Source: Escherichia coli (GTDB lineage: Bacteria; Pseudomonadota; Gammaproteobacteria; Enterobacterales; Enterobacteriaceae). From it: a stretch of 64,000 nt of DNA. Made by a program: the position numbers and the translations under genes. This document shows, piece by piece, positions 20,726 through 61,401 of the stretch (its first letter is position 1; each line of letters begins with the position of its first letter). The stretch is taken from the NCBI RefSeq assembly GCF_002854065.1, contig NZ_CP024147.1, one strand, 5' to 3'. Under the pieces are notes generated by a model. It was not told where the DNA came from. It searched no databases and was given only the letters and a program-made list of their open reading frames with translations.

Positions 20726-20774
20726 TTTACCTCTACCGGATAGTCACACTGATGAGTCTGATCCGGGAGGGATT

Positions 20775-21806
<1,032 letters not shown>

Positions 21807-28533: not shown

Positions 28534-28632
28534 TGCCTGATGCGCTACGCTTATCAGGCCTACGTGGTTTATGCAATATGTTGAATTTGCATGATTTTGT
28601 AGGCCTGAGAAGGCGTTCACGCCGCATCAGGA
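28534..28632. repeat. Pair of inverted REP elements (BIME-like) downstream of glpD
   Basis: tgcctgatgcgctacgcttatcaggcctacg and gtaggcctgagaaggcgttcacgccgcatcagg match REP consensus in opposite orientations. Confidence 0.7.
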
Positions 28633-29287: not shown

Positions 29288-30279
29288 TATTGTCCTGATG
29301 ATTCGGGGGATGCTTCATACAGCAGCACATACCCCACATCCTCTACCAACTGTTGCCCCTGCTGACTTATAAACCAGTCAACAAATTTCTGCGTTTCCGG
29401 CGTGGGATTTTCACGCGTCACCATATAGGCATCCACAATGTATGGATAAGTGCCGTTGCGGATATTTTCCTCGGTAGGCGCAACGCCATTTATAGCCAAA
29501 AGTTTAATCTGCTTGCGCATTTTGAGCATATTGTCATTCATACGAGTGACGTAATAGTGGAAGGTGTACCCAATGGAAGATGGCGTGTTTTGATAGTCGG
29601 CAACTTCAGTAATTAAACCGCCCATAAGATCAATCACAGTAGATTTTTTAGCTGGCAGCATTGGGGTGTCTTGCATAACCAATCCCTTCATAATCGTTTG
29701 GCTTCCAGAATCTTCAGGGCGCTGCCAGACTTTTATATGTTCGTCACTACCACCTACTTTATTCCAGCGGCTAGTTTTGCTGCTAAAAATATCTTTAACC
29801 TGGTGCTCAGAGAGAGAATTTACCGGGTTATTAATATCAACGATAAAGACAAAGGCTTCGCGGGCGAAAGCGGTATATTTCAGTTTAACACCCGCTTCTT
29901 CTGCACGTTTTTTCTGTCCTTCCGACGGTTGTGCAACAAAAATAACCGTCGCGGAACCTTTAATCAGACTATCGTAGGCTTCAGCTGTTCGGGTTTGCTG
30001 CAAACCATACGCCTGCCAGGCCAGCGAGGTTCGATCCTTATCTTTTGGCTCGGGTACTAATTTATAATACGCGGAGGCATACAGCGGGTATAAGGCTGTA
30101 GCGCCGTACACTCTCGGCCATCTTGACCAATCATCGCTGTAACGTAATGCAGGTTGCCCCCGCAGAGACGTCAGTCCATGGCTCTCTTCTTCCCTGACGC
30201 TGTTATAGTACCCTTCCCGGTCGACACATCCCGCCAGTAACGCCGTGCCTAATAGTAAAACACCGGTGAATTTATTCAT
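29287..30279 (-). CDS. PstS-like (PBP_like_2 fold) periplasmic-binding lipoprotein (330 aa)
   Basis: ORF 29287..30342; start set at MNKFTGVLLLGTALLAGC (lipobox LAGC); PstS-like motifs GATALYPLY, RPEDSGSQT, SIGYTFHYY. Confidence 0.7.
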   Translation of the reverse strand: MNKFTGVLLLGTALLAGCVDREGYYNSVREEESHGLTSLRGQPALRYSDDWSRWPRVYGATALYPLYASAYYKLVPEPKDKDRTSLAWQAYGLQQTRTAEAYDSLIKGSATVIFVAQPSEGQKKRAEEAGVKLKYTAFAREAFVFIVDINNPVNSLSEHQVKDIFSSKTSRWNKVGGSDEHIKVWQRPEDSGSQTIMKGLVMQDTPMLPAKKSTVIDLMGGLITEVADYQNTPSSIGYTFHYYVTRMNDNMLKMRKQIKLLAINGVAPTEENIRNGTYPYIVDAYMVTRENPTPETQKFVDWFISQQGQQLVEDVGYVLLYEASPESSGQ

Positions 30280-30304
30280 CTCGCTGATTCCTTTCTCTCG
30301 AGCG

Positions 30305-31822
30305 TTATTCCATTGTTGGATACAGCGGCACATATCCCACATCTTCTACCAGACTCTGCCCCTGCGGCGTTAAAAACCATTCGACCAGTTTTTGTGTTTC
30401 TGACGTTGTATTTTCCCTCGTTACCATAAAGGCATCGACGATATAGGGATATTTGCCGTTGCGAATATTTTCCGCAGTCGGTGTAATACCGTTAATCGCT
30501 AGCAGTTTTATATTTTTATCAGCATTCATTTGCGTCGCGTAATAGCGGAAGGTATAGCCTATTGCGTTGTTTGTATTACGGTATTCGGCAACGACTTTAA
30601 TCATTCCCTCCATCACGCTTGCCACTTCCATTTCCTGCGGCGAGATCATGCGGACATTTTTCATGACCTGTGATTGCATCACTGTCTGGCTGCCAGAGTC
30701 TTCCGGGCGCTGCCAGGTCTGGATCTCCTGATCGTTACCGCCAACAGTACGCCAGTTGGTAATTGCACCACTGAAAATGTCACGCACCTGTTGTTCAGTC
30801 AGGGAATTAACCGGATTATCCGCATTGACGATGAAAACGAATGCTTCACGGGCAAAGGGGGTGTACAGCAAAGTGACACCAGATTCCTTTGCACGTTTTT
30901 TTTGCCCACCGGAAGGTTGCGCCACGAAAATAATATCAGCATCGCCCTTAACGATTTTGTTATATGCTTCTGGCGTACGAGAGTTTTCCAGATAATCCCA
31001 AACGTGAAAATCCTCTGGTATTACACTTAATGCATAAAATGCAGAAGCATAAATTGGGTACGCAGCCGTGGCGCCATCGATTCGCGGCCAGTTTTGCCTA
31101 AACTGAATTTGCGGTTTGCCACGCAGCGGCGTCAGTCGATTATTGAGTTTATCGGGTTGCCAGGCCCAGATATCAATATTTTCGCGTACACCGACACCAG
31201 GATTGAGCTGTTTATATAAATAACCCTGATAACCAGCGACAAAACCAAGCATGAGAAGGATAAACAGGAGGGAATTACGGCAACGTAGCCCGGATGTACC
31301 GGTTAAAGGATGTCTGGTTGGCCGGCCGTACCCCAGCGAAAAACTGATATGCGCGCCAACGGGTATAATGACTATCCACCAGTACTCACCTCCGACTACT
31401 GAGACTAACAAAACGCCCAGCCAGGGGAGCATAAGATCAGCCAACCAACCCGATCCCATCTGGTGAAATTGATAATCTGCCAGATGCAGCGCGATTATCC
31501 AGCCAACCAGGATTAATAAAGCGGGTACTAAAAAAAGACATTGTCGCCAGACGGCTATTTCTCTTTTTTCTGGTGCACTATCGCCTGCCCATACTCGCCC
31601 CGAGAAAAATAGCATTAATGCGCCCAGCGCCAGCATAAAAATGTTGAGCAGAAGGTAAATTGTTGGCGTGATAAGGATATTACAAACTTCAATAATACCG
31701 GCAAGTCCGACACCCAGCATAGCAACAACCGCCGCCAAAAATTGCGTCAGTATGGGGATGCCGAAAAAAGTCATTACCAGCGAGGACAAAATCCATTTTC
31801 TGTTTTGCATTATTCTTTCCAT
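30305..31822 (-). CDS. Fusion protein: N-terminal polytopic membrane domain (about 190 aa) plus C-terminal PstS-like binding domain (505 aa)
   Basis: N-terminus hydrophobic (MERIMQNRKWILSSLVMTFFGIPILTQFLAAVVAML...); C-terminal half paralogous to the lipoprotein (GATAAYPIY, RPEDSGSQT, AIGYTFRYY); alternative start at 31810; TATAAT on minus strand at 31840..31845. Confidence 0.65.
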   Translation of the reverse strand: MERIMQNRKWILSSLVMTFFGIPILTQFLAAVVAMLGVGLAGIIEVCNILITPTIYLLLNIFMLALGALMLFFSGRVWAGDSAPEKREIAVWRQCLFLVPALLILVGWIIALHLADYQFHQMGSGWLADLMLPWLGVLLVSVVGGEYWWIVIIPVGAHISFSLGYGRPTRHPLTGTSGLRCRNSLLFILLMLGFVAGYQGYLYKQLNPGVGVRENIDIWAWQPDKLNNRLTPLRGKPQIQFRQNWPRIDGATAAYPIYASAFYALSVIPEDFHVWDYLENSRTPEAYNKIVKGDADIIFVAQPSGGQKKRAKESGVTLLYTPFAREAFVFIVNADNPVNSLTEQQVRDIFSGAITNWRTVGGNDQEIQTWQRPEDSGSQTVMQSQVMKNVRMISPQEMEVASVMEGMIKVVAEYRNTNNAIGYTFRYYATQMNADKNIKLLAINGITPTAENIRNGKYPYIVDAFMVTRENTTSETQKLVEWFLTPQGQSLVEDVGYVPLYPTME

Positions 31823-43467: not shown

Positions 43468-43472
43468 GGTTC

Positions 43473-43510
43473 AAACAGGTGCTGCACACAACCAGACGCG
43501 GCACCTGTTT
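43473..43510. terminator. Hairpin between yhgN and the DprA-like gene (possible bidirectional terminator)
   Basis: AAACAGGTGC-18 nt-GCACCTGTTT 10-bp inverted repeat followed by TTTTATTACC. Confidence 0.45.
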
Positions 43511-43512
43511 TA

Positions 43513-44715
43513 TTACCTGAACTGATAATGACCTTCGCCCAATCGGATAACCCTTCCCTCTTCTTCTGCGCGGTTCAGCCACACACTAATTTGTTCGATG
43601 GTTAAACCAGTACAAGACGCCAGCCTTTCAATACTTATCGATTCCTTTGCAAGGATCGCCAGTTCCGCCACAAAGAGTTGATAAAAATCGACAGGCGTAT
43701 ACGCGGGCATTACTGCGTAATTTGCGTCATCTTCATGCAGCGAAAACAGTTCTGGTTGAGCGTTACGGAGTGCTCTGTCATACATCAGCCCAGGAACGTC
43801 TGGCAGTCTGATCGTCACATTCTCAGCCTGTTCAGCACTCCATGACGCCCCATTTTCTACTAATCGTGAATTGGCTGATTGCATATCCTGATTTGGTTTA
43901 ACCTGCACAGGCAGCCACTGATGTTTTAATGCCTCCATCGCCCCGGTTATCGTTCCACCGGTCATTCCCGCACGTACAACCATTGCGCTTTCAGCAAGGC
44001 AATAAATATATTTATTTCGCGCCATCGCATTGCCGACGGTGAAACGTACCTCTGGGTAAAACGGCGAAATCAACACCAGGTTGCCTGCTATAAGCCCTTC
44101 ACGCCATTTCACTAACGTACTCGTTTTTAACAAGCTATCAGCTAATACGCCAACGGCAGTTCCCCCGGCCTCCAGTACCGACGCCATTGCACATTCATCA
44201 ATACCTCGCGCACCACCAGAGATAACGCAAATCCCCTGTTGGGCCAGTTTCGCGGCCAGTTGTTGGGTATAGCGCAAATCGTCAGTCGGAGCATCTCGCG
44301 AGCCAACAATCGCCATACCTTCCGCTTGCAGTAATGCTTTATTCCCGCAGCCAAATAAAACGGGAGGTGCATCCGTTCGCAATCGGTTTTTCAAGCGAAC
44401 GGGATAATCAGCATCTCCGCGGGTTAAGATCCATAAACCGGCGCGTTGCCACTTATCTACCGCCAACGCCAGACTATGACCACGCGCCAGCAAGCCAAGA
44501 ATACGCTCCTGAGAAATACGCGGATCGCTCCAGCCTGTAAGTTTCTCTTGCGGTTGCGGCACCAGAAGCTCGGCGGGACTGATACGTTGGTGCTTCAGCC
44601 ATAATGCAAACTTCCCCCATTCACTATTACTAAGAGGTTTATACTCACTCGCCGCCGCGCGAGAAAAATCGCTGGTTAGCAGGAGAGTTGCTTGTGCATT
44701 GGCTGAAAGATTCAT
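43513..44715 (-). CDS. DprA/Smf-like Rossmann-fold protein (about 400 aa), candidate antitoxin of a PsyrTA/ShosTA-like module
   Basis: ORF 43513..44808; DprA signature MAIVGSRDAPTDDLRYTQQLAAKLAQQGICVISGGARGIDECAMASVLEAGGTAVGVLADSL; start favoured at MNLSANAQ, whose ATG overlaps the upstream TGA (ATGA-type coupling). Confidence 0.75.
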   Translation of the reverse strand: MNLSANAQATLLLTSDFSRAAASEYKPLSNSEWGKFALWLKHQRISPAELLVPQPQEKLTGWSDPRISQERILGLLARGHSLALAVDKWQRAGLWILTRGDADYPVRLKNRLRTDAPPVLFGCGNKALLQAEGMAIVGSRDAPTDDLRYTQQLAAKLAQQGICVISGGARGIDECAMASVLEAGGTAVGVLADSLLKTSTLVKWREGLIAGNLVLISPFYPEVRFTVGNAMARNKYIYCLAESAMVVRAGMTGGTITGAMEALKHQWLPVQVKPNQDMQSANSRLVENGASWSAEQAENVTIRLPDVPGLMYDRALRNAQPELFSLHEDDANYAVMPAYTPVDFYQLFVAELAILAKESISIERLASCTGLTIEQISVWLNRAEEEGRVIRLGEGHYQFR

Positions 44716-46822
44716 CAATTTTTTACCGAGGTAGAAGCAAGGGCAAGAGGATAAACCGTCGGGCAACCTGCCTGGCGTAACAGTGCTGTCAGAACTGTCA
44801 GCGTCCATGCAGAATCCACGATATCGTCAACCAGCAACGCCGGACCAGGCATCAAAGGAGGGGTAATCACAAACGCCCCGTCGAGATTTTGACACTGGTG
44901 GAAACGGTTTTGCTGCATTTTCTGCGGTGGATTGTCCACGACTTTTTCAATGGCATCAATAATAGGTAAGCCAAGTTTCGCCGCCAGTCGCCGGGCAAAA
45001 TCAGGAACCAGGTCGAGGTGCTTTAATGAAGGAACGCAGCATACCCAGGTTGGTTCAGGATGCGGATTCCAGCGTTGGCGAACCATTTCCGCACATGCCT
45101 CCACCAGTTCATCACTGAATCGCCCCGTTTTTTTCTCCTGTGCTACCTGCTTTCCCCACCCGGAATCTCCCCAACGAGAAAGGATTCGCCCCGTAGATCC
45201 TTGTAAAATCGCAGGCAAGTTCCCTTTAAATCCGTATTGCGTAAAAGCCCCAGCTGCCACCTGTTTATTGAGATTTAATGACAGGTCAGCGTGTTTAATA
45301 AATAAGTTTGCCGCATGGAGTAAGCCGCTATCAATGTCGGGCGACAACAACGGATGCTGAAGACAACTGCTACATTTACCACAATGTTCGGCACCTGGCT
45401 CATCGAGTGCGCGGCGCAGAAATTGCATTTTGCACTCCTTGGTCGTGATATAGCTTTCAACGTCTGCCAGCTCACTTTTTCTCTGATTCATCAAATGGTT
45501 AATTCGTTCATGGTCAGGAGAAAAACTGACAATTGTTCTGCGCCATAATTTCTCGGTATACACCACAGGCGATGGATTTTCAGCTACCAATAATTTCAGT
45601 GCTTTTTCTATTTGCCCATAACGGAGATTCGTCCGTTGTTCAATGCCTCGTAAGGTAAGACCGTCATTCACGCTAAGTACGTTGAGTATTTCATGAATTT
45701 GCGCCTCCGCAGGAAAGGCGCTTTCACGGAAGAATTTATGAATAGCACGGTCTTCACTGCCGCAAAGCAGTATGCCAACAGCAGAATCGATACCGCGACC
45801 GGCACGCCCCACCTGTTGGTAGTAACCAACTATCGAACCTGGCATCTGGTAATGAATAACAAACCCCAAATCCGGTTTGTCAAAGCCCATTCCCAGCGCC
45901 GTTGTCGCAACCAGCACTTTAATTTTATTTGCCAGCAACGCCTGCTCCAGATATTCCCTGGCAGTATTAGAATCTTCCGCGCCTTCACAAGTCACGCCGC
46001 TGTAGTAAGCAAATGCACTGATACCATTTTTCCTTAACCACTCGGCGACAAGTTCGGCATCGCGAGTAGTCAGGGTATAAACAATTCCCGATTTGGAAAA
46101 CTGAGGGAAAACTGAGGGATAACCGTTGCTAACCATGCCAGACGGGATGACTGTTCACCTAAGACTAAGGCATCAAGCGCCAAACTTTCGCGAGCCAGCG
46201 TTCCACGCTGAATCACAATGTCACCCAATTGCTGACGGATATCCTCAACGACACGGTTATTCGCTGTCGCGGTTGTACCCAGAACAGGGGTATTCGCAGG
46301 TAGTTGGCGCAAAATATCTAATATACGTCGGTAATCCGGGCGAAAATCGTGGCCCCAATCAGAGATGCAGTGCGCCTCGTCGACCACAAGCAAGCCAATA
46401 TGATCGGCTATAGGATATAAAACCGTTTCGATAAAGTCCTGGTTTGCCAAACGTTCCGGGGAAACCAGCAAGCAATCGACCTCACCTTGCAGCAACTTAT
46501 CGCTAATGCGCTGCCATTCTTCTCTGTTTGTAGAATTCAACGTTTCAGCCGTAATACCTAACCGTTCAGCGGCGGCAACCTGGTTACGCATCAGGGCAAG
46601 CAAAGGAGAGATGATAATTGTCGGGCCAGCGCCGCGATCGCGGAAGATTTTACTGGCGATGAAGTACACAGCACTTTTCCCCCAGCCAGTGCGTTGGACA
46701 ACCAGCAGTTTTCGCCGTTGGTTCACCACCGCGTCTATGGCTTCCCATTGCCCTTCCCTGAAAGTAGCGGTGGTATTTCCTAACATCCGCTGTAAAAGCA
46801 ATTCAGCTGCGTGCTTTTCCAT
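44715..46822 (-). pseudogene. RecQ-like helicase fused to a C-terminal PRTase domain (PsyrT/RqlH-like toxin candidate), frameshifted by an 11-bp tandem duplication
   Basis: ORF 46070..46822 has helicase motifs I-III (QRTGWGKS, VVDEAHCISDWGHDFRPDYRRI, GTTATA); ORF 44715..46136 in another frame has helicase motifs IV-VI (YQQVGRAGRG) and a PRTase motif (LLVDDIVDSAWT); deleting one repeat copy at 46096..46117 joins them into about 698 aa. Confidence 0.75.
46095..46119. repeat. 11-bp perfect tandem duplication (GAAAACTGAGG x2) inside the helicase gene
   Basis: Forward ...tttgGAAAACTGAGGGAAAACTGAGGgat...; on the coding strand both frames read PQFS across the copies. Confidence 0.9.
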
Positions 46823-46924
46823 CTTTATCTCCTGCGATCTTTAGGCAGTGATTAGAACGGATTATTTGCAGGTAAATTTGCGAGAGAGATCAAAAAGATG
46901 AAGAGAGGAGAAAAGAGAAATGAA

Positions 46925-46948
46925 TTACTGCGAGCAAGCTCGCAGTAA
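46925..46948 (-). terminator. Hairpin downstream of gntU (candidate terminator)
   Basis: TTACTGCGAGC-aa-GCTCGCAGTAA perfect inverted repeat, then TTCATTTCTCTTTTCTCC on the minus strand; sits between the gntU stop and the helicase start. Confidence 0.5.
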
Positions 46949-46961
46949 TTTGTCGCAGTAA

Positions 46962-48302
46962 TTAACTCAACAGCTGGAACGCAATCATCCCAACGATGGC
47001 ACCGACAGTGCCGAGGATGGTTTCCATCATGGTCCAGGTTTTCAGCGTTTCGGCTTCGGTCGCGCCGGTAAATTTACCGAACAACCAGAAACCAGCGTCG
47101 TTAACGTGGCTGACAACAATCGAACCACCGGCGATACAAATCGACAGCGCCGCCATTTGCGCACCGGAGTAGTTCAGTTGTTCAATAACCGGCATCACCA
47201 GTCCCACCGCCGTTAAACAGGCAACGGTTGCAGAACCCTGAATGATGCGCACTGCAGCGGCCAGCACGAAGCAGGTGATGGCAATCGGCAGGCCCATGCC
47301 GGTTAACGCTTCGCCCAGTGCCGGACCTACGCCAGAGTCAACCAGCACCTGTTTGAACACGCCGCCCGCACCAATCACCAGCAGAATGATCCCCGCCGGT
47401 TGCAGCGCGTGACCGCAAATATCCATCACTTTGTCTTTTGGCATGCCCTGACGCATTGCCAGGCCATAAATCGCTACCAGACAAGCAACCAGAATCGCGG
47501 TAAACGGATGACCAATAAACTCGAACCATTCGTAAGCGGTAGAGCCTTCCGGCACAAAACGCGCGGCAATGGTTTTCAGCCCCACCAGCACCAGCGGCAG
47601 CAGGATCAGCGACAGGCTGAATCCGAAGGACGGCATTTTGCCTTCGCCGAGATGCGGCTCGCTGATGTCGTCAGGAATATGCAGCTCAACGTAACGGCTG
47701 ATGAAGTTACCCCACAGCGGCCCGGCAATAATCATTCCCGGAATTGCCGCACACAGGCCAATCAGGATCATCCAGCCAAAATCGGCGTTCATCTGCGATG
47801 CCAGCAGCATTGGCGCTGGCCCAGGCACCAGGAACGCCGCCGCGGCCGCCACGCCTGCGAATAATGGGATTACCAGCTTCACCAGGTTCGTACCGGTGTG
47901 GCGCGCCATTGAGAAAGCAACGCTAATCAGCAGAACAATCGCCACTTCAAAGAACAGCGGTAGCGCACAGACCAGCCCCGCAAGGCCGATGGCATAATGC
48001 GCGCGGCTGTGACCGAAGGATTTGAGCATTTTGACGGCAATCTGATCGACTGCGCCGGTTTCATGTAAGATCTTGCCAAACATAGCTCCCAGGGCGACAA
48101 CCACCGCCAGGAAGCCGAGGGTGCCTCCCATCCCTTTTTCCATCGTCGCTGCGATTTTATCGAGCGGCATACCGGAAAAAAGGCCAGCCCCCATGGACAC
48201 CACCATTAAAGCCAGGAAAGCGTGCATACGCGCCTTCATGACTAAAAACAGCAGCAGTAAAACAGACCCTACTGCTGTTAAAACAAGCGTTAATGTAGTC
48301 AC
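46962..48302 (-). CDS. gntU: Low-affinity gluconate transporter GntU (446 aa)
   Basis: 446-aa polytopic ORF MTTLTLVLTAVGSVLLLLFLVMKARMHAFLALMVV..., GntP family. Confidence 0.95.
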   Translation of the reverse strand: MTTLTLVLTAVGSVLLLLFLVMKARMHAFLALMVVSMGAGLFSGMPLDKIAATMEKGMGGTLGFLAVVVALGAMFGKILHETGAVDQIAVKMLKSFGHSRAHYAIGLAGLVCALPLFFEVAIVLLISVAFSMARHTGTNLVKLVIPLFAGVAAAAAFLVPGPAPMLLASQMNADFGWMILIGLCAAIPGMIIAGPLWGNFISRYVELHIPDDISEPHLGEGKMPSFGFSLSLILLPLVLVGLKTIAARFVPEGSTAYEWFEFIGHPFTAILVACLVAIYGLAMRQGMPKDKVMDICGHALQPAGIILLVIGAGGVFKQVLVDSGVGPALGEALTGMGLPIAITCFVLAAAVRIIQGSATVACLTAVGLVMPVIEQLNYSGAQMAALSICIAGGSIVVSHVNDAGFWLFGKFTGATEAETLKTWTMMETILGTVGAIVGMIAFQLLS

Positions 48303-48305
48303 TAC

Positions 48306-48833
48306 TTATTTGCCTTTTTTAATAACCTCAATGGTGCTTGCCACAACACCTTCCAGCGGTTGATCGATATCCACCACCAGTACATCGGTTTCGTCCGCAC
48401 CCGGCTCCTGCAGCGTTTCAAACTGCGTCACCAACATTTGGGTTTTAAAGAAATGGCCTTTGCGCGCTTTCAGGCGGCTTTCAATCACATCAAAATCGCC
48501 TTTCAGGTAGATGAAAGAGAGATTCGGATTACCTTCACGCAGCAAGTCGCGATAGTGTTTTTTCAATGCAGAACAGACGATCAGTGACACTTTATTAGTG
48601 CGCTGCATAGCAAACGCGGCGTCGTTCAGCGCCTGCAACCACGGTTTGCGATCGTCGTCATTCAGCGGTTCGCCAGACGCCATTTTTTCGATATTGCGCC
48701 GTGGATGGAGGAAATCGCCATCAAGAAACGCGGCATGAAGTTGATGCGCCACTTCACTGGCGACCGCAGATTTGCCGCTGCCCGATACGCCCATCAAGAC
48801 GTAAATGTGGTGATCATGGTTAGTCGTGCTCAA
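48306..48833 (-). CDS. gntK: Gluconokinase GntK (175 aa), apparent TTG start
   Basis: ORF 48306..48854; product recognised from (M)STTNHDHHIYVLMGVSGSGKSAV; the codon at that start is TTG. Confidence 0.88.
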   Translation of the reverse strand: MSTTNHDHHIYVLMGVSGSGKSAVASEVAHQLHAAFLDGDFLHPRRNIEKMASGEPLNDDDRKPWLQALNDAAFAMQRTNKVSLIVCSALKKHYRDLLREGNPNLSFIYLKGDFDVIESRLKARKGHFFKTQMLVTQFETLQEPGADETDVLVVDIDQPLEGVVASTIEVIKKGK

Positions 48834-48863
48834 AGTGGTGCCCCCACAATACAAGAATTAAAA

Positions 48864-48893
48864 AATGTTACGGGTAACTGTTATCGGTAACAT
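48864..48893. promoter_or_regulatory. GntR operator-like palindrome upstream of gntK
   Basis: AATGTTACgggtaactgttatcgGTAACATT with outer inverted repeat ATGTTAC/GTAACAT, about 30 bp upstream of the gntK start. Confidence 0.55.
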
Positions 48894-48972
48894 TCTCCGG
48901 CCGGACAATATCAGAAGCAATATCCATCCGTGCCTTAAGTGTATAAGTGTGAGCTACTTCAAATTTGTGGGC

Positions 48973-49968
48973 TTAAATAGATCCGCCCGGTGACAAGGTG
49001 AAACCTAAATCTAACATTTTCGGTGTCACAGATTCGCCACGAATACGCGCCAGAAGGCGTTCAGCGCCAATACTGCCCATCCGCTCACGCGGCGTCAGCA
49101 CGCTCGCAAGTCGTGGCTCCATCACCTGACCAATGTCATGACCGTGGAAACCGGCAATCGCCATATCGTCAGGAACTTTTAACCCCAGACGCTGACATTC
49201 AAACGCCGCGCCGACCGCCAGATCATCATTAGTACAGAACACGCCATCCAGCTGCGGATATTCCCGCCGCGCCTGGCGAATCAGTTCAATACCGGAAGAG
49301 TAAGAAGAAGATTGCTCAACCATCACGCTATACGGCACCAGGCCTGCATCCAGCATCGCCTGTTCGTATCCCTTCTGTTTGATGATAGTACGTTCGTCGA
49401 GACGTGCGCCGAGATAGGCAATATGGCGATGCCCGCGAGCAATAATGGCGGTGGTCATCTGGCGTGCCGCTTCAAAGTTATCAAAACCGACGGCGATATC
49501 GAGGCACGGCGACTTGCTGTCCATCAGTTCCACCACGGGAATACCCGCCACTTCAATCATCTTTAAGGTGCGCGGCGTGTGCGTACGTTCAGTGAGGATC
49601 AGGCCGTCGATATTCCAGGAGAGCATGGATTCGAGGCGTTCTTGCTCCATTTCCGGTTTATAACCGTAGTGGGCCAGCATGGTCTGATAACCGTGCGCGT
49701 CGGTGACGCTTTCGATTCCGCGTAATACTTCCGCGAAAACCTGGTTGGTGAGAGAAGGTAACAGGACGCCAATCGCCCGGCTGGTGGCGTTAGAGAGGAT
49801 ATCGGGCGCACGATTGGGAATATAGCCCAGTTCATCAAGAGCCGCGGCAATCTTGCCGCGTAGAGCGACGGAAACCTGCTCCGGGTTGCGTAAAAAACGG
49901 CTGACCGTCATTTTGGTCACGCCTACACGGTCAGCCACATCCTGAAGTACGGGTCTTTTCTTTTTCAT
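48973..49968 (-). CDS. gntR: LacI-family gluconate repressor GntR (331 aa)
   Basis: 331-aa ORF MKKKRPVLQDVADRVGVTKMTVSRFLRNPEQVS... (HTH plus periplasmic-binding-like fold). Confidence 0.95.
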   Translation of the reverse strand: MKKKRPVLQDVADRVGVTKMTVSRFLRNPEQVSVALRGKIAAALDELGYIPNRAPDILSNATSRAIGVLLPSLTNQVFAEVLRGIESVTDAHGYQTMLAHYGYKPEMEQERLESMLSWNIDGLILTERTHTPRTLKMIEVAGIPVVELMDSKSPCLDIAVGFDNFEAARQMTTAIIARGHRHIAYLGARLDERTIIKQKGYEQAMLDAGLVPYSVMVEQSSSYSSGIELIRQARREYPQLDGVFCTNDDLAVGAAFECQRLGLKVPDDMAIAGFHGHDIGQVMEPRLASVLTPRERMGSIGAERLLARIRGESVTPKMLDLGFTLSPGGSI

Positions 49969-50191
49969 CGTCCTGAAGGTACAAAAGAGATAGATTCTCT
50001 TAGTTTAACACGGACGCATCAGAACCTTCCCGGGGAAAACAGTGCTTGTTTACAATTATTAGATATACACTAAATCAATTGCATCGCATTGTGCTAACGA
50101 CGCGGCAAAACCCCGGAAGCGTACATCAGCACGCGACCGGAGCGAGCGAGGAAGCCTGCAAAAAGGCAGGCTTCAAAGATGCCGTTGAGTT

Positions 50192-50887
50192 TTAAACCGG
50201 CGGCAGATCGAACAGTAACACTTCGCTGTCGCTATCCGCATGGATGGAGATTGCCTGCTCATCCCAGATTGCCAGACCATCGCTGGTCGAGGCTTTCACG
50301 CCGTTAATGGTGACATTGCCTTTCACCACCTGGATCCAGACGCGGCGTTCAGCGGCAATCTGATGCACCGACTGCTCATCTTTCAGCAACGCCCAGCGGT
50401 ACAGTTCCATATCCTGATGCACTTTCAATGAGCCATCTCGCGCATCCGGCGAGAGCACCAGCTGTTTGCCCTGTACGGCATCGAAGCGACGCTGTTCATA
50501 ACGCGGCGTAATACCGTTTTCTTCAGGCATGATCCAGATCTGATACAGATGCAGACGCTCGGTGCTGCTTGGGTTGTACTCTGAGTGACGAATACCCGTA
50601 CCAGCACTCATAATCTGGAACTCACCCGCCGGAACCTGCTCTTTATTGCCCATGCTGTCCTGGTGCTCAACAGTACCTTCCAGCACGTAGGTCAAAATTT
50701 CCATATCTTTATGCGGGTGAGTGCCGAAGCCCTGCCCTGCTTCAATCACGTCGTCGTTAATCACGCGCAGCGCGGAGAAGCCCATAAAGTTCGGATCGTA
50801 ATAGTTGGCAAAAGAGAAAGTATGCCAGGAGTCCAGCCAGCCATGATTTGCATGACCACGTTCATTTGCTTTGCGTAAGTAGATCAT
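50192..50887 (-). CDS. yhhW: Pirin-like cupin (quercetin 2,3-dioxygenase) YhhW (231 aa)
   Basis: 231-aa ORF MIYLRKANERGHANHGWLDSWHTFSFANYYDP... Confidence 0.93.
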   Translation of the reverse strand: MIYLRKANERGHANHGWLDSWHTFSFANYYDPNFMGFSALRVINDDVIEAGQGFGTHPHKDMEILTYVLEGTVEHQDSMGNKEQVPAGEFQIMSAGTGIRHSEYNPSSTERLHLYQIWIMPEENGITPRYEQRRFDAVQGKQLVLSPDARDGSLKVHQDMELYRWALLKDEQSVHQIAAERRVWIQVVKGNVTINGVKASTSDGLAIWDEQAISIHADSDSEVLLFDLPPV

Positions 50888-51009
50888 TTGTATTCGCCCC
50901 CTGAATGATTTCGATGGGCTTAGTGTGGACCCGATCTGCCTGGGATGATAGAGGGTGAAAATTGCCCCCTCTGTTCAAAAAAATTGAACTATTAGAGGGG
51001 CCATCAAAC

Positions 51010-52047
51010 TTACTTCGCGAGAGTCACTGTGGAGGGAGAGGCTTGCTCGAATCCGCGTTCAAGGATTTCCAGATTGGTAAGAACTTCAGATTCCTTGACG
51101 TAATTTGGCGCACCGTGGGTGATGGTTTGATACAACGCATCATAAACGCGCCCGTAATCGCCCATCTCCGGCTTCATCTCTTCTCTGACCGTCACGCCCT
51201 CGTCATTGACATACTCCAGCACACCGACCGAATCATCCGCTGCGAATCCCGGTTCGCCCGGCATAATATTAGCCTTCAGGCTGGTTTCCTGCTGGTCGAT
51301 ACCGTATTTAATAAACGAACCTTTCTTACCGTGAACGATAAATTTCGGATAATCGATTTTCACCAGATGGCTGGTTTTGACGATGGCTTTTAGATCGCCA
51401 TAAAACAGTTGCGCTTCGAAAGTATCGTCAGGATTGGCTTTAATGCGCAGGCTGCGGATGTCATAAGCGACGTGATCCGGGCGACCGAACAGAGAAATAA
51501 TCTGGTCCATCGTATGCACACCAAGGCCATAGAACGCGCCATCCTGCGGCAGCCCAGGTTTGGTTTCTGCCACCGGGCGGTAATAGTCAAAATGGCTTTC
51601 CACTTCGACAATCTCTCCCAGCTTGCCGCTTTCAATCGCTTTTTTCGCCGTCAGGAAGCAGGAATCAAAGCGACGATTCTGATATGGCGTGACGGTCAGC
51701 CCTTTGCTTTTCGCCAGTGCAAACAGCTCTTTCGCCTGCGCAAGTGTCGGAGTGAACGGTTTTTCGACCAGCACATTTTTCCCGGCTTCCAGCGCGCGCT
51801 TCGCGTACTCGAAGTGGCTGTCCGCATGGGTGCAGACAACAACCAGCTTAACATCGGGATCGTTTAGCACTTCGTTGAGATCGCTGGTGAAATGGATATG
51901 AGAGTAAATGGGAGCTTGTTCTTCCGGCTTTGCATGGCGGCGAAAAATATGCGCGACATGCCAGCTATCCTTGCGGTTAAGTACATACGGCAGATGGTAA
52001 CGGGTGGTGCTTTTGCCGAAGCCAATAAAGGCGCAGTTGATGACCAT
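51010..52047 (-). CDS. yhhX: Gfo/Idh/MocA-family NAD(P)-dependent oxidoreductase YhhX (345 aa)
   Basis: 345-aa ORF MVINCAFIGFGKSTTRYHLPYVLNRK... Confidence 0.93.
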   Translation of the reverse strand: MVINCAFIGFGKSTTRYHLPYVLNRKDSWHVAHIFRRHAKPEEQAPIYSHIHFTSDLNEVLNDPDVKLVVVCTHADSHFEYAKRALEAGKNVLVEKPFTPTLAQAKELFALAKSKGLTVTPYQNRRFDSCFLTAKKAIESGKLGEIVEVESHFDYYRPVAETKPGLPQDGAFYGLGVHTMDQIISLFGRPDHVAYDIRSLRIKANPDDTFEAQLFYGDLKAIVKTSHLVKIDYPKFIVHGKKGSFIKYGIDQQETSLKANIMPGEPGFAADDSVGVLEYVNDEGVTVREEMKPEMGDYGRVYDALYQTITHGAPNYVKESEVLTNLEILERGFEQASPSTVTLAK

Positions 52048-52169
52048 GATTTCGTCCTTTTTAAGGTGGTTATTTACACCTTAGCGCAAAGCGGACGTGG
52101 TTCCTACTGGAGTGCGCATAACGAACACAAGCACTTCCCGAGGATAAATTGAGAACGAAAGATCAAAAA

Positions 52170-52259
52170 AAAAGCCAGCACCCGGCTGGCTAAGTAATAC
52201 TGGAAGCAATGTGAGCAATGTCGTGCTTTCAGGTTCTCCGCGAGGGTCTTCCTGATCGC
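52170..52259 (-). ncRNA. ryhB: Iron-responsive small RNA RyhB (90 nt)
   Basis: Minus-strand GCGATCAGGAAGACCCTCGCGGAGAACCTGAAAGCACGACATTGCTCACATTGCTTCCAGTATTACTTAGCCAGCCGGGTGCTGGCTTTT matches RyhB as I recall it, with the terminator hairpin plus T-run. Confidence 0.9.
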
Positions 52260-52261
52260 GA

Positions 52262-52286
52262 GACAATAATAATCATTCTCATTCGC
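52262..52286 (-). promoter_or_regulatory. Fur box overlapping the ryhB promoter
   Basis: Minus-strand GAATGAGAATGATTATTATTGTC resembles the Fur consensus and overlaps a TATTAT -10 placed 7 nt upstream of the RyhB 5' end. Confidence 0.75.
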
Positions 52287-52380
52287 ACTTGTCCAACACT
52301 TTTTGCAAAAAAATGCATTTGACTCGCATTCGAAAGTCAATGATGTTGAAAGGGACTTTTACCCCAAAGAGGACAAAGGA

Positions 52381-52869
52381 ATGAGTGAGATAGTGATACG
52401 CCATGCTGAAACGCGCGATTACGAGGCCATCAGGCAGATTCACGCCCAGCCGGAGGTGTATTGCAACACACTACAACTACCTCATCCTTCGGAAGGCTGG
52501 TGGCCAGAAAGATTGAAAGATCGCCAGGGTTTTAAACAACTGGTTGCCTGCATTGATGGCATCGTAGTGGGTCATCTTTTCATTGAGGCTTATCAAGGCC
52601 CACGCCGCAGTCATGTTGCAACTTTTGGTATCTGTGTTGACTCCCGCTGGCACAACCGCGGCATCGCCAGCGCCCTGATCCGCGAATTGATTGAAATGTG
52701 CGACAACTGGTTACGGATAGATCGTATTGAGTTGACGGTGTTTGCGGATAACGCCCCGGCAATCACAGTCTATAAAAAATTCGGATTTCACATAGAAGGC
52801 ACCGGCAAAAATTACGCTTTTCGTAATGGTGAATATGTCGATGCGTATTATATGGCGCGGGTGAAATAG
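52381..52869 (+). CDS. yhhY: GNAT-family N-acetyltransferase YhhY (162 aa)
   Basis: ORF 52303..52869; start set at MSEIVIRHAETRDYEAIRQIHAQPEV. Confidence 0.9.
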   Translation: MSEIVIRHAETRDYEAIRQIHAQPEVYCNTLQLPHPSEGWWPERLKDRQGFKQLVACIDGIVVGHLFIEAYQGPRRSHVATFGICVDSRWHNRGIASALIRELIEMCDNWLRIDRIELTVFADNAPAITVYKKFGFHIEGTGKNYAFRNGEYVDAYYMARVK

Positions 52870-52894
52870 AGAATTTGCAATCTAAGTTTGTCAT

Positions 52895-52925
52895 TTAAGC
52901 CCTCACCTACCGGGAGAGGGCTTAA
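52895..52925. terminator. Hairpin between convergent yhhY and ggt
   Basis: TTAAGCCCTC-acctaccggg-GAGGGCTTAA inverted repeat in the 60-bp gap. Confidence 0.45.
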
Positions 52926-52929
52926 GATA

Positions 52930-54675
52930 TTAATACCCCGCCGTTAAATCATCCACCGAGCGCGGGTCGGATGCGCCGTACAACTCACCGTCCGGCCCAA
53001 CCATAATGCTTTGTGTACTGCCCATCGCCTCTTTCAGCGCCACTTTCTGACCTTTTGCTTCCAGCAGCTTGAGCGTATCCGGGCTAAACCCTTTTTCGAC
53101 ACGCAGCTCGTCCGGCAACCACTGATGGTGGAAACGCGGCGCATTGGTCGCTTCGGCGACATTCATACCATAATCGATGCTATTCACCACCATTTGAAGC
53201 ACGGTGGTAATGATCCGGCTCCCGCCAGGGCTACCGGTGACCAGCCAGGTTTTACCGTCTTTCACCACAATGGTGGGTGACATCGATGACAGCGGGCGTT
53301 TGTTCGGCCCGACGGCGTTGGCATCACCGCCCACCAGCCCATAAATGTTCGGTACGCCCGGTTTGGCGGAGAAATCATCCATCTGGTTATTAAGCAGAAT
53401 ACCGCTCTCGCCCGCGACAATGCCCGTACCGAAGGTGGTGTTCAGCGTATAGGTCACCGCCACCGCGTTACCATCTTTATCCACCACTGAGTAATGGGTA
53501 GTTTGATTACTCTCATAAGGCGCAAGCTTACCAGGGCGAATCTCGCTGGACGGTTTCGCTTTATTGATATCGATTTGCTCGGCAATAGATTTGGCATAGG
53601 CTTTATTGGTCAGCGCCTGCCACGGGACTTTGACAAAATCCGGGTCGCCAAGATATTCCGAGCGGTCAGCGTAGGCATATTTCTCCGCTTCTGCCATGAT
53701 CTGCATCGCGTCGGCGCTGCCAAAACCGTATTTCTTCATATCGAAGTTTTCCAGAATATTGAGGATTTGTACGATATGGATCCCGCCGGAGGATGGCGGT
53801 GGCATGGAGTAAACCTGATACCCGCGATAATCGCCGCTTATCGGTGTGCGTTCGACTGCTTTATACGCCGCTAAATCTTCTTTAGTGATCAGGCCACCGT
53901 TTTTCTGCATCTCCTGGGCAATCTGTTCCGCTATCGTGCCTTTGTAGAATTCGTCCGGGCCGTTTTCGGCAATCATCTCCAGGTTCTTTGCCAGGTTCGC
54001 CTGCACCAGCTTGTCGCCCTTTTTCAGCGGCTCGCCCTCTTTCCAGAAGATAGCCTTGCTGTTTTCGTGATTCGGCAGCACTTCGCTCCCGTAGGTTTTG
54101 AGATCGTCAGCCAGCGCGTCGTTAACGATAAAACCATCGCGTGCCAGTTTAAACGCTGGCTGCACCACTTTGTTCAACGGCATTGTGCCGTATTTATCCA
54201 ACGCCAGCGAGAAACCAGCGACCGTACCGGGCGTGCCGGAAGCCAGATGCGAAGTGAGTGATTTTTTGCTGTCCGGGTTGCCCTGGTCATCGAGAAACAT
54301 ATCGCGGGTCGCTTTGGCGGGTGCCATTTCGCGGAAATCGATAGCGGTGGTATTGCCATTTTTCGAGCGGATCAGCATAAAACCACCACCGCCCAGATTC
54401 CCTGCCTGCGGATGCGTTACCGCCAGCGCGTAGCCCACAGCCACGGCGGCATCAACGGCATTCCCGCCCTCCTTGAGGATATCCACCCCCACCTGAGTGG
54501 CAGTAGCATCTACAGATGCCACCATCCCCTGTTTCGCGCGTACCGGATGAAAGACATCTTCCTCCACGCCGTAAGAAACAGGAGACGGCGCAGGTGGCGC
54601 GGCTACCGTACTAAAACAACTTCCTGAGAGCAGAGCAGCAATGGCCACCCGGCGTAAAAACGTCGGTTTTATCAT
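52930..54675 (-). CDS. ggt: Gamma-glutamyltranspeptidase Ggt (about 580 aa)
   Basis: ORF 52930..54702; start set at MIKPTFLRRVAIAALLSGSCFS (signal peptide); autoprocessing Thr in ...QTTHYSVVD... Confidence 0.94.
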   Translation of the reverse strand: MIKPTFLRRVAIAALLSGSCFSTVAAPPAPSPVSYGVEEDVFHPVRAKQGMVASVDATATQVGVDILKEGGNAVDAAVAVGYALAVTHPQAGNLGGGGFMLIRSKNGNTTAIDFREMAPAKATRDMFLDDQGNPDSKKSLTSHLASGTPGTVAGFSLALDKYGTMPLNKVVQPAFKLARDGFIVNDALADDLKTYGSEVLPNHENSKAIFWKEGEPLKKGDKLVQANLAKNLEMIAENGPDEFYKGTIAEQIAQEMQKNGGLITKEDLAAYKAVERTPISGDYRGYQVYSMPPPSSGGIHIVQILNILENFDMKKYGFGSADAMQIMAEAEKYAYADRSEYLGDPDFVKVPWQALTNKAYAKSIAEQIDINKAKPSSEIRPGKLAPYESNQTTHYSVVDKDGNAVAVTYTLNTTFGTGIVAGESGILLNNQMDDFSAKPGVPNIYGLVGGDANAVGPNKRPLSSMSPTIVVKDGKTWLVTGSPGGSRIITTVLQMVVNSIDYGMNVAEATNAPRFHHQWLPDELRVEKGFSPDTLKLLEAKGQKVALKEAMGSTQSIMVGPDGELYGASDPRSVDDLTAGY

Positions 54676-54794
54676 CGTTATTCTCCAGAGATTAAGGGGC
54701 AACCCCAGCTAAGCCTGGTATATAACTCTGAATTAATCCTGATGATTGCAGGAAAGGAGTAAACTTAAAGAATATCTTCAGAGGAGGATACGCG

Positions 54795-55235
54795 ATGAAA
54801 CGACTTCTGATTCTTACGGCACTCCTGCCGTTTTTCGGCTTTGCACAGCCCATTAATACTCTGAACAACCCTAACCAGCCGGGGTATCAGATCCCCAGTC
54901 AGCAGCGGATGCAAACCCAGATGCAGACTCAGCAAATCCAGCAAAAAGGGATGCTGAATCAGCAACTGAAAACGCAAACTCAGTTGCAACAACAGCATTT
55001 AGAAAACCAGATAAACAATAATTCTCAGCGGGTGTTGCAGTCACAGCCGGGGGAGCGAAATCCCGCCCGGCAGCAAATGCTGCCCAACACCAATGGCGGG
55101 ATGTTAAACAGCAACCGTAATCCGGATAGTTCGTTGAATCAGCAGCATATGTTGCCGGAGAGGAGAAACGGCGACATGCTGAATCAGCCCGGCACGCCGC
55201 AGCCTGATATACCGTTGAAAACTATTGGGCCGTAA
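54795..55235 (+). CDS. yhhA: Secreted Q-rich protein YhhA (DUF2756, 146 aa)
   Basis: 146-aa ORF with signal peptide [19 protein letters not shown] and low-complexity Q/N-rich body. Confidence 0.9.
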
Positions 55236-55965
55236 AGTTCGGACCAATCACATCAATCGCATCGGTACAGATGCAATCCACGCCCCAGCGCAGCAACTCT
55301 GCCGCGCGCTGGGGTTTATTGACGGTATAAACCAGAATCCGTAATCCGGCGTCTTTCAACTGCATCACTCGCGCTTTATCGAGTAACTTATGATTGAGAT
55401 GAATAGAGACGCAGCCCAGCCGCGCGGTCAGTTCTCGCCAGTCGTCGCGCCACTCATCCAGCAACAAACCGCGCGGCAGTTCTGGTACTGCCTGTTGTGC
55501 GGCTTCTAAAGCATCAATCTCAAACGATGACAGTAGCGGCGGCGTCATACCGGCCCACAGCTCGCGTGCCGCCAGCGCCACCATTTTGCCCGTTAATGGC
55601 CCGGTGCCAGTGGTGGGTTTGATTTCGATATTCGCCATCATCCCATGTTCGCGACAGCGTTCCGCCACCTGCGAAAGCAACGGCAGCGGCTCACCTTTAA
55701 ACGCTTTGCCGTACCAACTGCCTGCATCCACACGTAGTAAATCCTGCCAGTTCAGTTCACCCGCGACGCCCCAGCCGTTGCTGGTACGTTCAAGATTGTC
55801 GTCATGGAGCAGAAAGATCTCGCCATCTTTCGATAACTTCGCGTCAAATTCGATCATCTTATGACCGTATTTTGCCCCGACGTCGGTTGCCGCCAGGGTG
55901 TTTTCCGGGGCCAGCTTACCGCCGCCACGATGTGCGACGATGCGGGGATAAGGCCAGTTACTCAT
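55222..55965 (-). CDS. ugpQ: Glycerophosphodiester phosphodiesterase UgpQ (247 aa)
   Basis: 247-aa [29 protein letters not shown]... Confidence 0.95.
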
Positions 55966-57032
55966 ACTCGTTGTCCTGTTTCACCATCAAAAAGATGCAG
56001 CTGATTTTCCGCCAGATGCAGCCACAGCGTGCTGCCTGCCGTCGGGCGCTCCTGATGCGCCAGTCGCACCACCAGCTTCTGTTCGCCCCAGCGTCCGTGC
56101 GCCAGGTTATCTGCGCCGAGGATCTCCAGCGTGTCCATCACCAGCGGTACGCCGCCTTCTGCCTGCGAGCTTAGCGCAATATGTTCCGGGCGAATGCCGA
56201 GAGTCATTTTACGCCCGGCATACTGACGGTAGCCACCGTTTAGCGGTAGCACGATACCGCCGTCCAGTTCAAAATGCGTGCCTTCATTATTCACGCGGCC
56301 TGTCAGCAGATTCATCGCCGGACTGCCAATAAAACTCGCCACAAACAGGCTGGCGGGCTTTTCGTAGACTTCAACTGGCGTGCCAATCTGTTCGGCAACG
56401 CCGCCGTTCATCACCATTACTCGCTGGGCGAGCGTCATCGCCTCAACCTGATCGTGAGTAACGTAGAGTGATGTCGTTTTCAGGCGACGGTGCAGCTGTT
56501 GCAGTTCAAGACGCATCTGTACGCGCAGCTTGGCATCGAGGTTAGAGAGTGGCTCATCAAACAGGAACACCGCCGGATCGCGCACAATCGCGCGGCCCAT
56601 CGCCACACGCTGACGCTGACCGCCGGAAAGCTCGCGCGGGCGGCGCTTAAGCAGACCGTCCAGTTCCAGAATGCGCGCCGCCTCTTTAACGCGCTCGGCA
56701 ATTTGCTGCTTGCCCATGCCGCGAATTTTCAGCCCCCACGCCATGTTTTCTTCAACACTCATATGCGGATAAAGCGCGTAGTTCTGGAACACCATCGCAA
56801 TCCCGCGATCTTTCGGCTCCATTTCGGTCACCCGCTGGTCGTTGATCCAGATATCGCCTTCCGTCACCCGCTCCAGCCCGGCAACCATGCGCAGCAGCGT
56901 CGATTTCCCGCAGCCTGACGGCCCGACCATCACGATAAATTCGCCATCCGCCACATCAAGGGTCAGCGGTTTAATCACCTGGGTTTTGCCATCCCAGCTT
57001 TTGGTTACTGCCTGTAATTTCAGTCCTGCCAT
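55962..57032 (-). CDS. ugpC: sn-glycerol-3-phosphate ABC transporter ATPase UgpC (356 aa)
   Basis: ORF 55962..57071; start set at [20 protein letters not shown]; Walker [10 protein letters not shown], signature LSGGQRQR. Confidence 0.95.
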
Positions 57033-57033
57033 C

Positions 57034-57879
57034 TTATTTCTCACTATCGACCAGGCCGCGCACGAAGGCACGCTGCATCACTAAAACAATCACTACTGGT
57101 GGGATCAGGGTTAACAACATCGCCGCCATCACTGAGTTCCATTCTGTGGTGCCTTCGCCAGTGGCGATCATCCCTTTGATCCCTGCCACGGTGGTGCCGA
57201 GATCCACGTCGGTAATAATCAACAACGGCCACAAATACTGGTTCCAGCCGTAAATAAAGGTGATCACAAACAACGCCGCCAGATTAGTTTTGGACAACGG
57301 AAAAACGATGTCGCAAAAGAAGCGCATTGGCGATGCGCCGTCGATCCGCGCGGCTTCCACCAGTTCATCCGGTAGGGTCATAAAGAACTGGCGGAAAAGA
57401 AACGTCGCGGTCGCCGAGGCCATCAGCGGCAGCGTTAAACCTGCGTAGCTGTCGAGCATCTTCAGGTTGGCGATGACTTCCACCGTCGGGAAGATACGTA
57501 CTTCAACCGGCAACATCAGGGTGATAAAAATCATCCAGAAAAAGAGGTTACGCAGCGGAAAACGAAACCAGACAATGGCGAATGCCGAGAGCATCGAGAC
57601 GGTAATTTTGCCGAGCGTAATGCTGAACGCCATCACGAAGCTGTTAAGCAACATCCGCCAGAACGGCGCACTATTTGTGCCTACCCCGTTTACCCAGATG
57701 TTGTGGATGTTTTCCAGCAGATGCGTGCCGGGGATGAGCGTCATCGGCGCGGCGTAGATGGCCTGTTTATCCAGCGTCGCCGCGACAAACGCCACGTACA
57801 GCGGGAATAGGATCACCGCGATCCCGAGGATCAGCATGGTATGGCTGAATATCGTCAGCCACGGACGGTTCTCAATCAT
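57034..57879 (-). CDS. ugpE: sn-glycerol-3-phosphate ABC transporter permease UgpE (281 aa)
   Basis: 281-aa [32 protein letters not shown]... Confidence 0.95.
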
Positions 57880-58763
57880 TGGTAACGCACCTTGCTTTCA
57901 ACATAGCGGAACTGCACCACCGTCAGCACGATGACGAGGAACATCAACACCACCGACTGTGCGGCAGACGAAGCCAGATCCAGTCCGGTAAAGCCTTCAC
58001 GGTAGATCTTATAAATCAGCGTCGTGGTGGCCTGCACCGGCCCACCGGACGTGGCGGCGTCGATCACCGGGAAGGTGTCGAAGAAGGCATACACCAGGTT
58101 CACTACCAGCAGGAAGAAACTCACCGGAGCGATAAGCGGTAGCGCAATCTTAAAGAAGCGGCGAATCGGGCCTGCGCCATCAATGGCTGCGGCTTCAATC
58201 AACGAACGGGGAATGGATTGCAGCGCGGCATAGAAGAACAGAAAGTTGTAGCTGATTTGCTTCCACACCGAGGCAAACACCACCAGAAACATCGCCTGAC
58301 CGCTGTTTTGCGCGTGGTTCCAGTCGTAGCCGAACTCGGCGAGAAAATGAGTGATCAGCCCGCGACCGGGGTTAAACAAAAATATCCACAATACGGCGGC
58401 AACGGCGGGAGCCACGGCATACGGCAGCAGCATCAAGGTTTGATAGAAACGACTGCCGCGCACGATGTACTCCACCAGCGCCGCAAAGAACAGCGATACC
58501 AGCAAACCGCTGACGGTGACAAAGGTGCTGAATTTTATCGTCGTCCAGAAGGAGTCGATATAGTAGCTGTCATGAAACAGCGCGACGAAGTTATCCAGGC
58601 CGACAAACTGGCTAGAGAAACCAAACGGATCGACGCTTTGTAGCGAGTACCACAACGCTTCGCCCGCAGGCCAGATAAAAAAGATAACGGTGATGATGAG
58701 CTGCGGCGCGACCAGCAAATAAGGCAACCAGCGCGAGCGGAACACCGGACGGGATGATGACAT
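57876..58763 (-). CDS. ugpA: sn-glycerol-3-phosphate ABC transporter permease UgpA (295 aa)
   Basis: 295-aa [32 protein letters not shown]... Confidence 0.95.
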
Positions 58764-60314: not shown

Positions 60315-60536
60315 GCGGTGACGGTACGGGTGAGGGAAAATGGGAGATGGGGCACGGATATCCCGAGAATGCACTGAAAAGAGGCGATTAACGGCCAGCT
60401 AATCGCCAGAACTCCTTACCATGAAGAGCAAAAATGGCAGCAAATTCTGCGTCCAGTTTTGCTGCCCGATGAGAGCTACATTTTTCAATTTTAACAAAAG
60501 ATTGCCGCGACACTGGTCTAACGGCAAAGAAGATTT

Positions 60537-61283
60537 TCATTGCACCACACTCTGCTTCAACCGTTCATTGGCGGTCTTAATCCATTCCCGGTGGTGTTTT
60601 CTATAATGAGGTCTTGAGCGTTTAGCCGTATCAACTACAGCAACATACTGCTCGTTGGCTTCACGTAACCGACTCATTTTCGCCAACATTTCCGCATAGT
60701 AAATACGCGCCTGCGGGCCGGGGTAATAAGAAATCAATACTTCAAACTCGCTTTCCGCATCAGCGTATTTTTCTTGTGCGGCTAACGTTCTGGCAAATAA
60801 CAAATGCCCGTCTGCCGACTGAAAATCAGGGTTATAACGCATCACATCTTCCAGCGTCTGCTGACAGGCGGCGAACTCCTGAATAGCAAACTGTGCCTGC
60901 GCCAGGCTTAGCATCATTGCCGCTTCATGGGCGAATATCCCGCTTAACGCCTGCTGATAATGGGGAACGGCTTCGTGGTAACGCTCCAGACGCGCCAGCT
61001 CGTTGGCAAGTTGATAGTGGTTTTGATTGGTCTCGGCAATCGCCAGCTCTTCGGTTAATTTGCGCAGGTGACGTTCCGGATTGATTTTGTCCTGCAGGCG
61101 CATCAGAAAGGTACGCCCGTGACGGTCAGCGCCCGTTTCTGGCAGCATCACCATGACAAAATACGCCACGCAACCAATCACCGGAAAACAGAAGATGATA
61201 AAAAACCAATATCGCTCTTGTCCGGTACGGTAAGCGTGGATACAGCAAAGCATTTCAAGCATGGCGACAACGGCATAATGCAT
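60537..61283 (-). CDS. Hypothetical membrane-anchored protein: N-terminal two-helix PLDc_N-like anchor plus cytoplasmic TPR-like helical repeats (248 aa)
   Basis: ORF MHYAVVAMLEMLCCIHAYRTGQERYWFFIIFCFPVIGCVAYFVMVML... (W...FP.IG...Y pattern), then alpha-helical repeats rich in A/L/Q/E/Y; GGAAAGG SD-like sequence upstream. Confidence 0.55.
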   Translation of the reverse strand: MHYAVVAMLEMLCCIHAYRTGQERYWFFIIFCFPVIGCVAYFVMVMLPETGADRHGRTFLMRLQDKINPERHLRKLTEELAIAETNQNHYQLANELARLERYHEAVPHYQQALSGIFAHEAAMMLSLAQAQFAIQEFAACQQTLEDVMRYNPDFQSADGHLLFARTLAAQEKYADAESEFEVLISYYPGPQARIYYAEMLAKMSRLREANEQYVAVVDTAKRSRPHYRKHHREWIKTANERLKQSVVQ

Positions 61284-61365
61284 GGGAGGGAACCTTTCCG
61301 TGGCAAATAAGTGGTCTGGTTTTAATCCTCCCGGTCAGTTGAAACAAGTCTGTATACGGACGAAT

Positions 61366-61392
61366 AACCCGGCAGAACTTAGCTGCCGGGTT
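61366..61392 (-). terminator. Hairpin downstream of livF
   Basis: AACCCGGCAG-ctaagtt-CTGCCGGGTT perfect 10-bp inverted repeat just after the livF stop; no clear U-tract. Confidence 0.4.
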
Positions 61393-61401
61393 ATTGATAA
61401 T

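Follow-up and report, generated by a model that had tools for sequence, protein, structure and literature searches.

The 60-bp interval between yhhY and ggt in the window (the whole 64,000-nt stretch of Escherichia coli DNA analysed here) very probably represents the ancestral, uninterrupted junction of these two genes, into which an islet was inserted later in part of E. coli. The two genes were convergent, with a stop-to-stop gap of exactly 60 bp (Table 1). The predicted YhhY protein matched the Pfam family Acetyltransf_1 (E = 1.6e-16), the predicted Ggt protein shared 98.6% amino acid identity with that of K-12, and the gene order yhhW-yhhX-ryhB-yhhY / ggt-yhhA-ugpQ was common to the window and K-12. 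The RyhB sRNA gene (Rfam RF00057, 83 bits) was located at nt 52166-52230 on the minus strand, between yhhX and yhhY, which is its expected K-12 position. In K-12 MG1655, the gap between yhhY and ggt is 3,454 bp in length and holds tssD/yhhZ, a truncated yrhA, IS1, yrhD, and yrhB; homology between the window and K-12 ended at nt 52872 and restarted at nt 52930. Being a deterministic difference in presence or absence, this result raises no question of chance. Coordinates and folding therefore agree with the preliminary description, in which the two genes were placed about 60 bp apart with a hairpin in the spacer. Its statement that several kb with yhhZ, yrhA, IS1, and yrhB lie between them in K-12 was also right, yrhD alone having been omitted, and a K-12 reference with the two genes equally close together was not found (3,454 bp versus 60 bp).

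Table 1. Coordinates of features at the yhhY-ggt junction and of other segments in the window
Feature	Position (nt)	Strand	Description
yhhY	52381-52869	+	GNAT N-acetyltransferase, 162 aa, left flank; ORF and translation; annotated yhhY in XJ34 and 042
Divergent mosaic tract in yhhY	~52476-52820	+	Gene nt ~96-440; rare E. coli allele class
Convergent intergenic spacer	52870-52929	.	60 bp, uninterrupted junction; read from the sequence
GC-rich hairpin	52895-52925	.	Common to both convergent genes; putative bidirectional terminator or 3'-end stabiliser
ggt	52930-54675	-	Gamma-glutamyltransferase, 581 aa, right flank; ORF; annotated ggt in XJ34
Segment absent from K-12	19909-20797
Segment absent from K-12	28745-31592
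Segment absent from K-12	43468-46961
Segment absent from K-12	60361-61401

In a census of 5,426 complete E. coli genomes, in which the empty state was defined by contiguity of a 131-bp junction probe, 985 genomes (18%) possessed the empty junction, 3,829 (70%) the yhhZ-yrhA islet, 343 (6%) a DUF4225 islet of the O157 lineage or type, and 233 (4%) yrhB only, these four states together accounting for 99.3% of the genomes. All 343 copies of the DUF4225 islet were at least 99% identical, and IS1 was observed at the junction in one genome (H56). As in the window, the empty junctions of E. coli 042, NCTC10444, XJ34, and CUWW06, and likewise those of E. albertii, E. whittamii, and Escherichia sp. E1V33, lay between convergent genes, had a start of AGAAT, and carried a GCCCTC...GAGGGC hairpin; that of CUWW06 was identical to the window, and the others showed only point differences, apart from two cases in E. 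albertii and E. whittamii described below. A 178-bp fragment of the ggt 3'-end (92.7% identity), annotated as a hypothetical protein, was also located on a 184-kb E. coli plasmid (NZ_AP022088.1, nt 4189-4365).

The K-12-type and O157-type islets had GC contents of 34% and 32%, respectively, compared with 52% for the window. In K-12 YhhZ, Pfam matches were obtained for an Hcp domain (PF05638, E = 1.6e-11) and, weakly, for HNH at the C-terminus (0.005), and YrhB was assigned to Imm35 (Pfam, E = 4e-23), while no Pfam family was matched by YrhA or YrhD. YhhZ has been placed among the Hcp-family His-Me finger toxins (PMC5714182), and Hcp-ET1 is an HNH DNase delivered by T6SS, with a cognate immunity protein (PMC6730261). 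The yhhZ-yrhAB region has appeared before among predicted genomic islands, under the name "Gist34" (PMC3309015), and IS1E has been located in yrhA (PMC12428005). The interval in the window had the same chromosomal position and flanking genes as this K-12 interval with its Hcp-ET1-type HNH toxin module, but lacked the entire 3.4-kb segment and carried a different variant of the ggt-side hairpin; in K-12, yhhY is directly followed by another hairpin, which belongs to the islet. No homologue was revealed when YhhZ, YrhA, YrhB, and the DUF4225 protein were searched against the 64-kb window by tblastn, and the window was thus rejected as a carrier of the Hcp-ET/YhhZ polymorphic toxin-immunity module.

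Between the O157 (DUF4225) and K-12-type islets, just the terminal 30-36 bp were held in common, corresponding to the hairpin next to ggt. Neither blastn nor tblastx comparison of the two islets detected any likeness beyond this terminal hairpin, and their left junctions differed. In the O157-type strain 472 (locus L003, nt 7146-9000), the islet encoded a 303-aa DUF4225 protein. Its other strand contained a 138-aa ORF that lacks annotation (nt 8216-8632), the product of which appeared hydrophobic by eye and is possibly an immunity partner.

Outgroups were sought in the species-representative genomes of GTDB, one per species, by peptide-pattern matches only, a scan that yielded 40 loci with a YhhY relative and returned neither E. 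fergusonii nor the main E. coli representative. Both genes were present at 38 of these loci, including those of E. albertii, E. whittamii, Escherichia sp. E1V33, E69, and SCPM-O-B-8794, Citrobacter, Enterobacter, Klebsiella, Lelliottia, and Pluralibacter. The spacers were 34-122 bp in length in 35 of them, all of which carried GC-rich hairpins, 231 and 369 bp in two, and 2,859 bp in Franconibacter only. The Escherichia spacers of 59-70 bp (042, NCTC10444, E69, E1V33, E. albertii, E. whittamii, and SCPM-8794) aligned full-length, column by column, with that of the window. Since the outgroup genes lie close together and the Escherichia spacers are orthologous, the empty state is considered ancestral and the AT-rich K-12 segment an insertion. 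The preliminary description had called the K-12 segment absent; it is indeed missing, and the outgroups and orthologous spacers refine this statement to a segment that was never inserted rather than one that was deleted. Besides point differences, two departures from the window were observed among these spacers. That of E. whittamii had 10 extra bases, and that of E. albertii (locus L010, nt 6457-6518) had the inner part of the hairpin inverted, its loop and inner stem being the reverse complement of those in E. coli (CCGGTAGG versus CCTACCGG) with the outer stem unchanged, which looks like a hairpin flip. Two contigs labelled Flavihumibacter (a MAG, L007) and Chryseobacterium (L037) carried an enterobacterial yhhY, with ggt in L037 and no ggt match in L007; they probably reflect contamination or mis-binning of the assemblies.

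It is quite improbable that the ancestor of the strain possessed a K-12-type islet and that a precise deletion left the 60 bp behind. Such a loss would fit the presence of the islet in 70% of E. coli genomes and the yrhB-only state, a partial-deletion derivative whose occurrence in 233 genomes indicates that deletions do happen at this locus. However, the window spacer was orthologous over its full length to those of E. albertii, E1V33, E69, and E. whittamii, no islet remnant was present in the window, and the islet lacked flanking repeats able to mediate precise excision. The empty alleles, furthermore, carried the hairpin variant found in other Escherichia lineages, unlike the ggt-side variant kept in every occupied E. 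coli allele (GCCCTCTTCCCACGAAGAGGGCCGCTAACC). Because the variants of empty and occupied alleles differ, the spacer seen in the window could not arise merely by deleting the islet.

The hairpin, the sole one of the spacer, possessed a 10-bp outer stem (UUAAGCCCUC/GAGGGCUUAA) and 3 inner pairs. Its predicted free energy was -18.8 kcal/mol on the plus strand (z = -4.8, with 0 of 200 shuffles equally stable) and -18.9 kcal/mol on the minus strand (z = -3.0), so that a stable GC-rich stem-loop is formed on both strands, 25 nt beyond the yhhY stop and 4 nt beyond the ggt stop. The stem was kept across Escherichia, in a consensus from 8 sequences only, with one compensatory change from A-U to C-G, and other genera carried GC-rich hairpins of different sequence at the same yhhY/ggt site. 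Bidirectional intrinsic terminators occur between convergent bacterial genes. The window resembled these in having a single strong GC-rich hairpin, stable on both strands and within 25-30 nt of both stops, but differed in lacking a canonical U-tract on either side: no U-rich tract was located directly 3' of the stem on either strand, the tails being UUAAGAUAUUAAUA (+) and UUAAAUGACAAAC (-), and a consensus promoter/terminator scan of nt 52200-53200 called 0 terminators because the U-tract is weak. Most likely, both transcripts are terminated or stabilised at the hairpin, which would serve as a bidirectional terminator or a 3'-end hairpin; given the poor U-tract and the negative consensus scan, it may just stabilise the 3' ends. 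An Rfam scan of nt 52200-53200 (E <= 1) gave no match in the spacer, RyhB alone being found nearby. A repeated palindrome of the REP/BIME type was rejected, as a search of the window allowing up to 3 mismatches gave a single copy of the hairpin. The 131-bp junction probe matched at most 4 places per genome, those being gene ends.

In the proposed course of events, part of E. coli gained an AT-rich accessory islet at a point past the yhhY stop codon and before the hairpin. In K-12 the cargo consists of yhhZ, an orphan gene for a T6SS Hcp-HNH toxin, together with yrhA (subsequently interrupted by IS1), yrhD, and yrhB, an immunity gene of the Imm35 family, while an unrelated DUF4225 module occupies the same point in the O157 lineage. 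The window strain may never have received the islet, or may have regained the ancestral allele via homologous recombination through the flanking genes. Strains would exchange junction states through homologous recombination within the two flanking genes, with no site-specific integrase involved, and the divergent core of yhhY described below would be a trace of this exchange history, that is, an old rare allele travelling mostly with the empty junction. We infer exchange by homologous recombination because integrase, tRNA, and border repeats were lacking and yhhY was mosaic: no integrase was annotated in the K-12-type or the O157-type islet, no tRNA or tmRNA gene was found at nt 48000-58000 of the window, and the K-12 islet had no border direct repeats, only AT-rich chance repeats and IS1 ends.

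Chromosomal hotspots, a concept of comparative genomics, are sites where accessory genes lie between conserved core genes in E. coli. The junction was like such sites in its alternative AT-rich cargoes, the lack of an integrase, and unusually divergent mosaic flanks, but its diversity was low, with essentially four states and approximately seven accessory gene families. The suggestion in the preliminary description of an integration hotspot is thus borne out as regards a variable junction (two unrelated cargoes, yhhZ-type and DUF4225-type, at the same point, the yrhB-only state, and IS1 in H56) but should not be taken to mean a site-specific attachment site, in view of the lack of integrase, tRNA, and direct repeats; the term is justified solely for the replacement of cargo within conserved surroundings. 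A dedicated attB at this position, for which the hairpin might be a candidate, reused by integrase-bearing mobile elements, is very unlikely. Although the same hairpin is abutted by two unrelated cargoes and the cargo is AT-rich, both islets lacked an integrase, recombinase, or transposase except for the secondary IS1, neither tRNA/tmRNA genes nor flanking direct repeats were present, the left junctions of the islets differed, and just four states covered nearly all of the genomes in the census.

The window was colinear with K-12 over 64 kb, except for four window-specific insertions (Table 1) and the absence at yhhY-ggt. It shared 100% identity over 24 kb with the complete genome of CUWW06 and 99.2-99.5% identity with XJ34. 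The four insertions, the absence, and the identity to CUWW06 confirm the non-K-12 background proposed in the preliminary description. In XJ34 and O157, the counterpart of the insertion at nt 43468-46961 is a RecQ-family helicase gene with a frameshift, and the insertion at nt 60361-61401 was situated where O157 has a gene for a TPR-repeat protein, between ugpB and livF. A match to the sRNA family ES036 (CssrF) of Rfam at nt 28556-28598 on the minus strand (39.3 bits, with a gathering threshold of 37.6 bits) adjoined the insertion at nt 28745-31592. Collapse or loss of the islet in the window assembly is of practically negligible probability, considering that the same junction was contiguous in 985 complete genomes, that the window was identical over 24 kb to a complete genome, and that the outgroups were arranged alike.

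A divergent mosaic tract occupied the core of yhhY. This tract was 77% identical in nucleotide sequence to K-12 and 76.6-78.2% identical to its counterparts in all other Escherichia lineages compared; those other yhhY alleles shared 90-99% identity with K-12, so that even the E. albertii allele was closer to K-12 than the window tract. The sequences on either side were 98-100% identical to ordinary E. coli, with sharp boundaries, and the tract was the most divergent aligned stretch between the window and K-12 (76% versus a median of 98.5%). Its dS was approximately 1.0 relative to all known Escherichia alleles, compared with 0.33 for K-12/E. albertii, and its dN/dS of 0.14 indicates that yhhY is functional and under purifying selection. 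The rare allele, defined by at least 90% identity to the window in the tract, was carried by 161 of 5,423 E. coli genomes (3%), and the remainder shared 77-79% identity, giving a bimodal distribution; an apparent intermediate class of 80-90% was rejected as an artefact of partial local alignments. Identical tract boundaries were observed in the window, 042 (empty site), and ETEC4070 (yhhZ islet), and dS within the class was 0.05-0.09, which, judged from these sequences, points to one old event. Of the 161 genomes with the rare allele, at least about 92 and at most about 139 had the empty junction, these numbers being bounds on the combination of rare allele and empty site and not an exact count, as against about 16-17% of the other genomes.

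No donor turned up in any taxon sampled. The scan of GTDB species representatives gave nothing above 84% amino acid identity, and when 5.8 billion protein clusters were searched, all hits with a name and more than 85% identity were labelled E. coli; proteins of Citrobacter (78%) and Salmonella (76%) were more distant. Gene conversion from a paralogue was rejected, since one place per genome was found in carrier strains. No description of a yhhY dimorphism was found in the searchable literature on yhhY and yhhZ. YhhY is reported to detoxify aminoacyl-nucleotide antibiotics, and the divergent core could alter its substrate range. The locus may conceivably be an old two-haplotype system, with a rare haplotype (divergent YhhY core and empty junction) and a common one (usual YhhY and mostly the T6SS islet) maintained by balancing selection tied to interbacterial antagonism, a reading that we regard as rather doubtful. 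Alternatively, the rare core may have been introgressed from an unsampled sister lineage of Escherichia.

As a whole, the junction is an ordinary, already known strain difference, namely a known islet missing from a non-K-12 strain, and its only mildly novel element is the rare, deeply divergent form of yhhY that mostly accompanies the empty junction. The 77% tract illustrates clearly how an ancient mosaic allele can lie next to a variable locus, and could be worth a brief note on its population genetics. The polarity matters, in that the natural reading of a deletion is corrected: K-12 has the insertion and the window strain keeps the ancestral state. The window strain lacks the yhhZ toxin gene and the immunity genes yrhA and yrhB, and, because these immunity genes are absent, it is predicted to be sensitive to competitors armed with Hcp-ET1.
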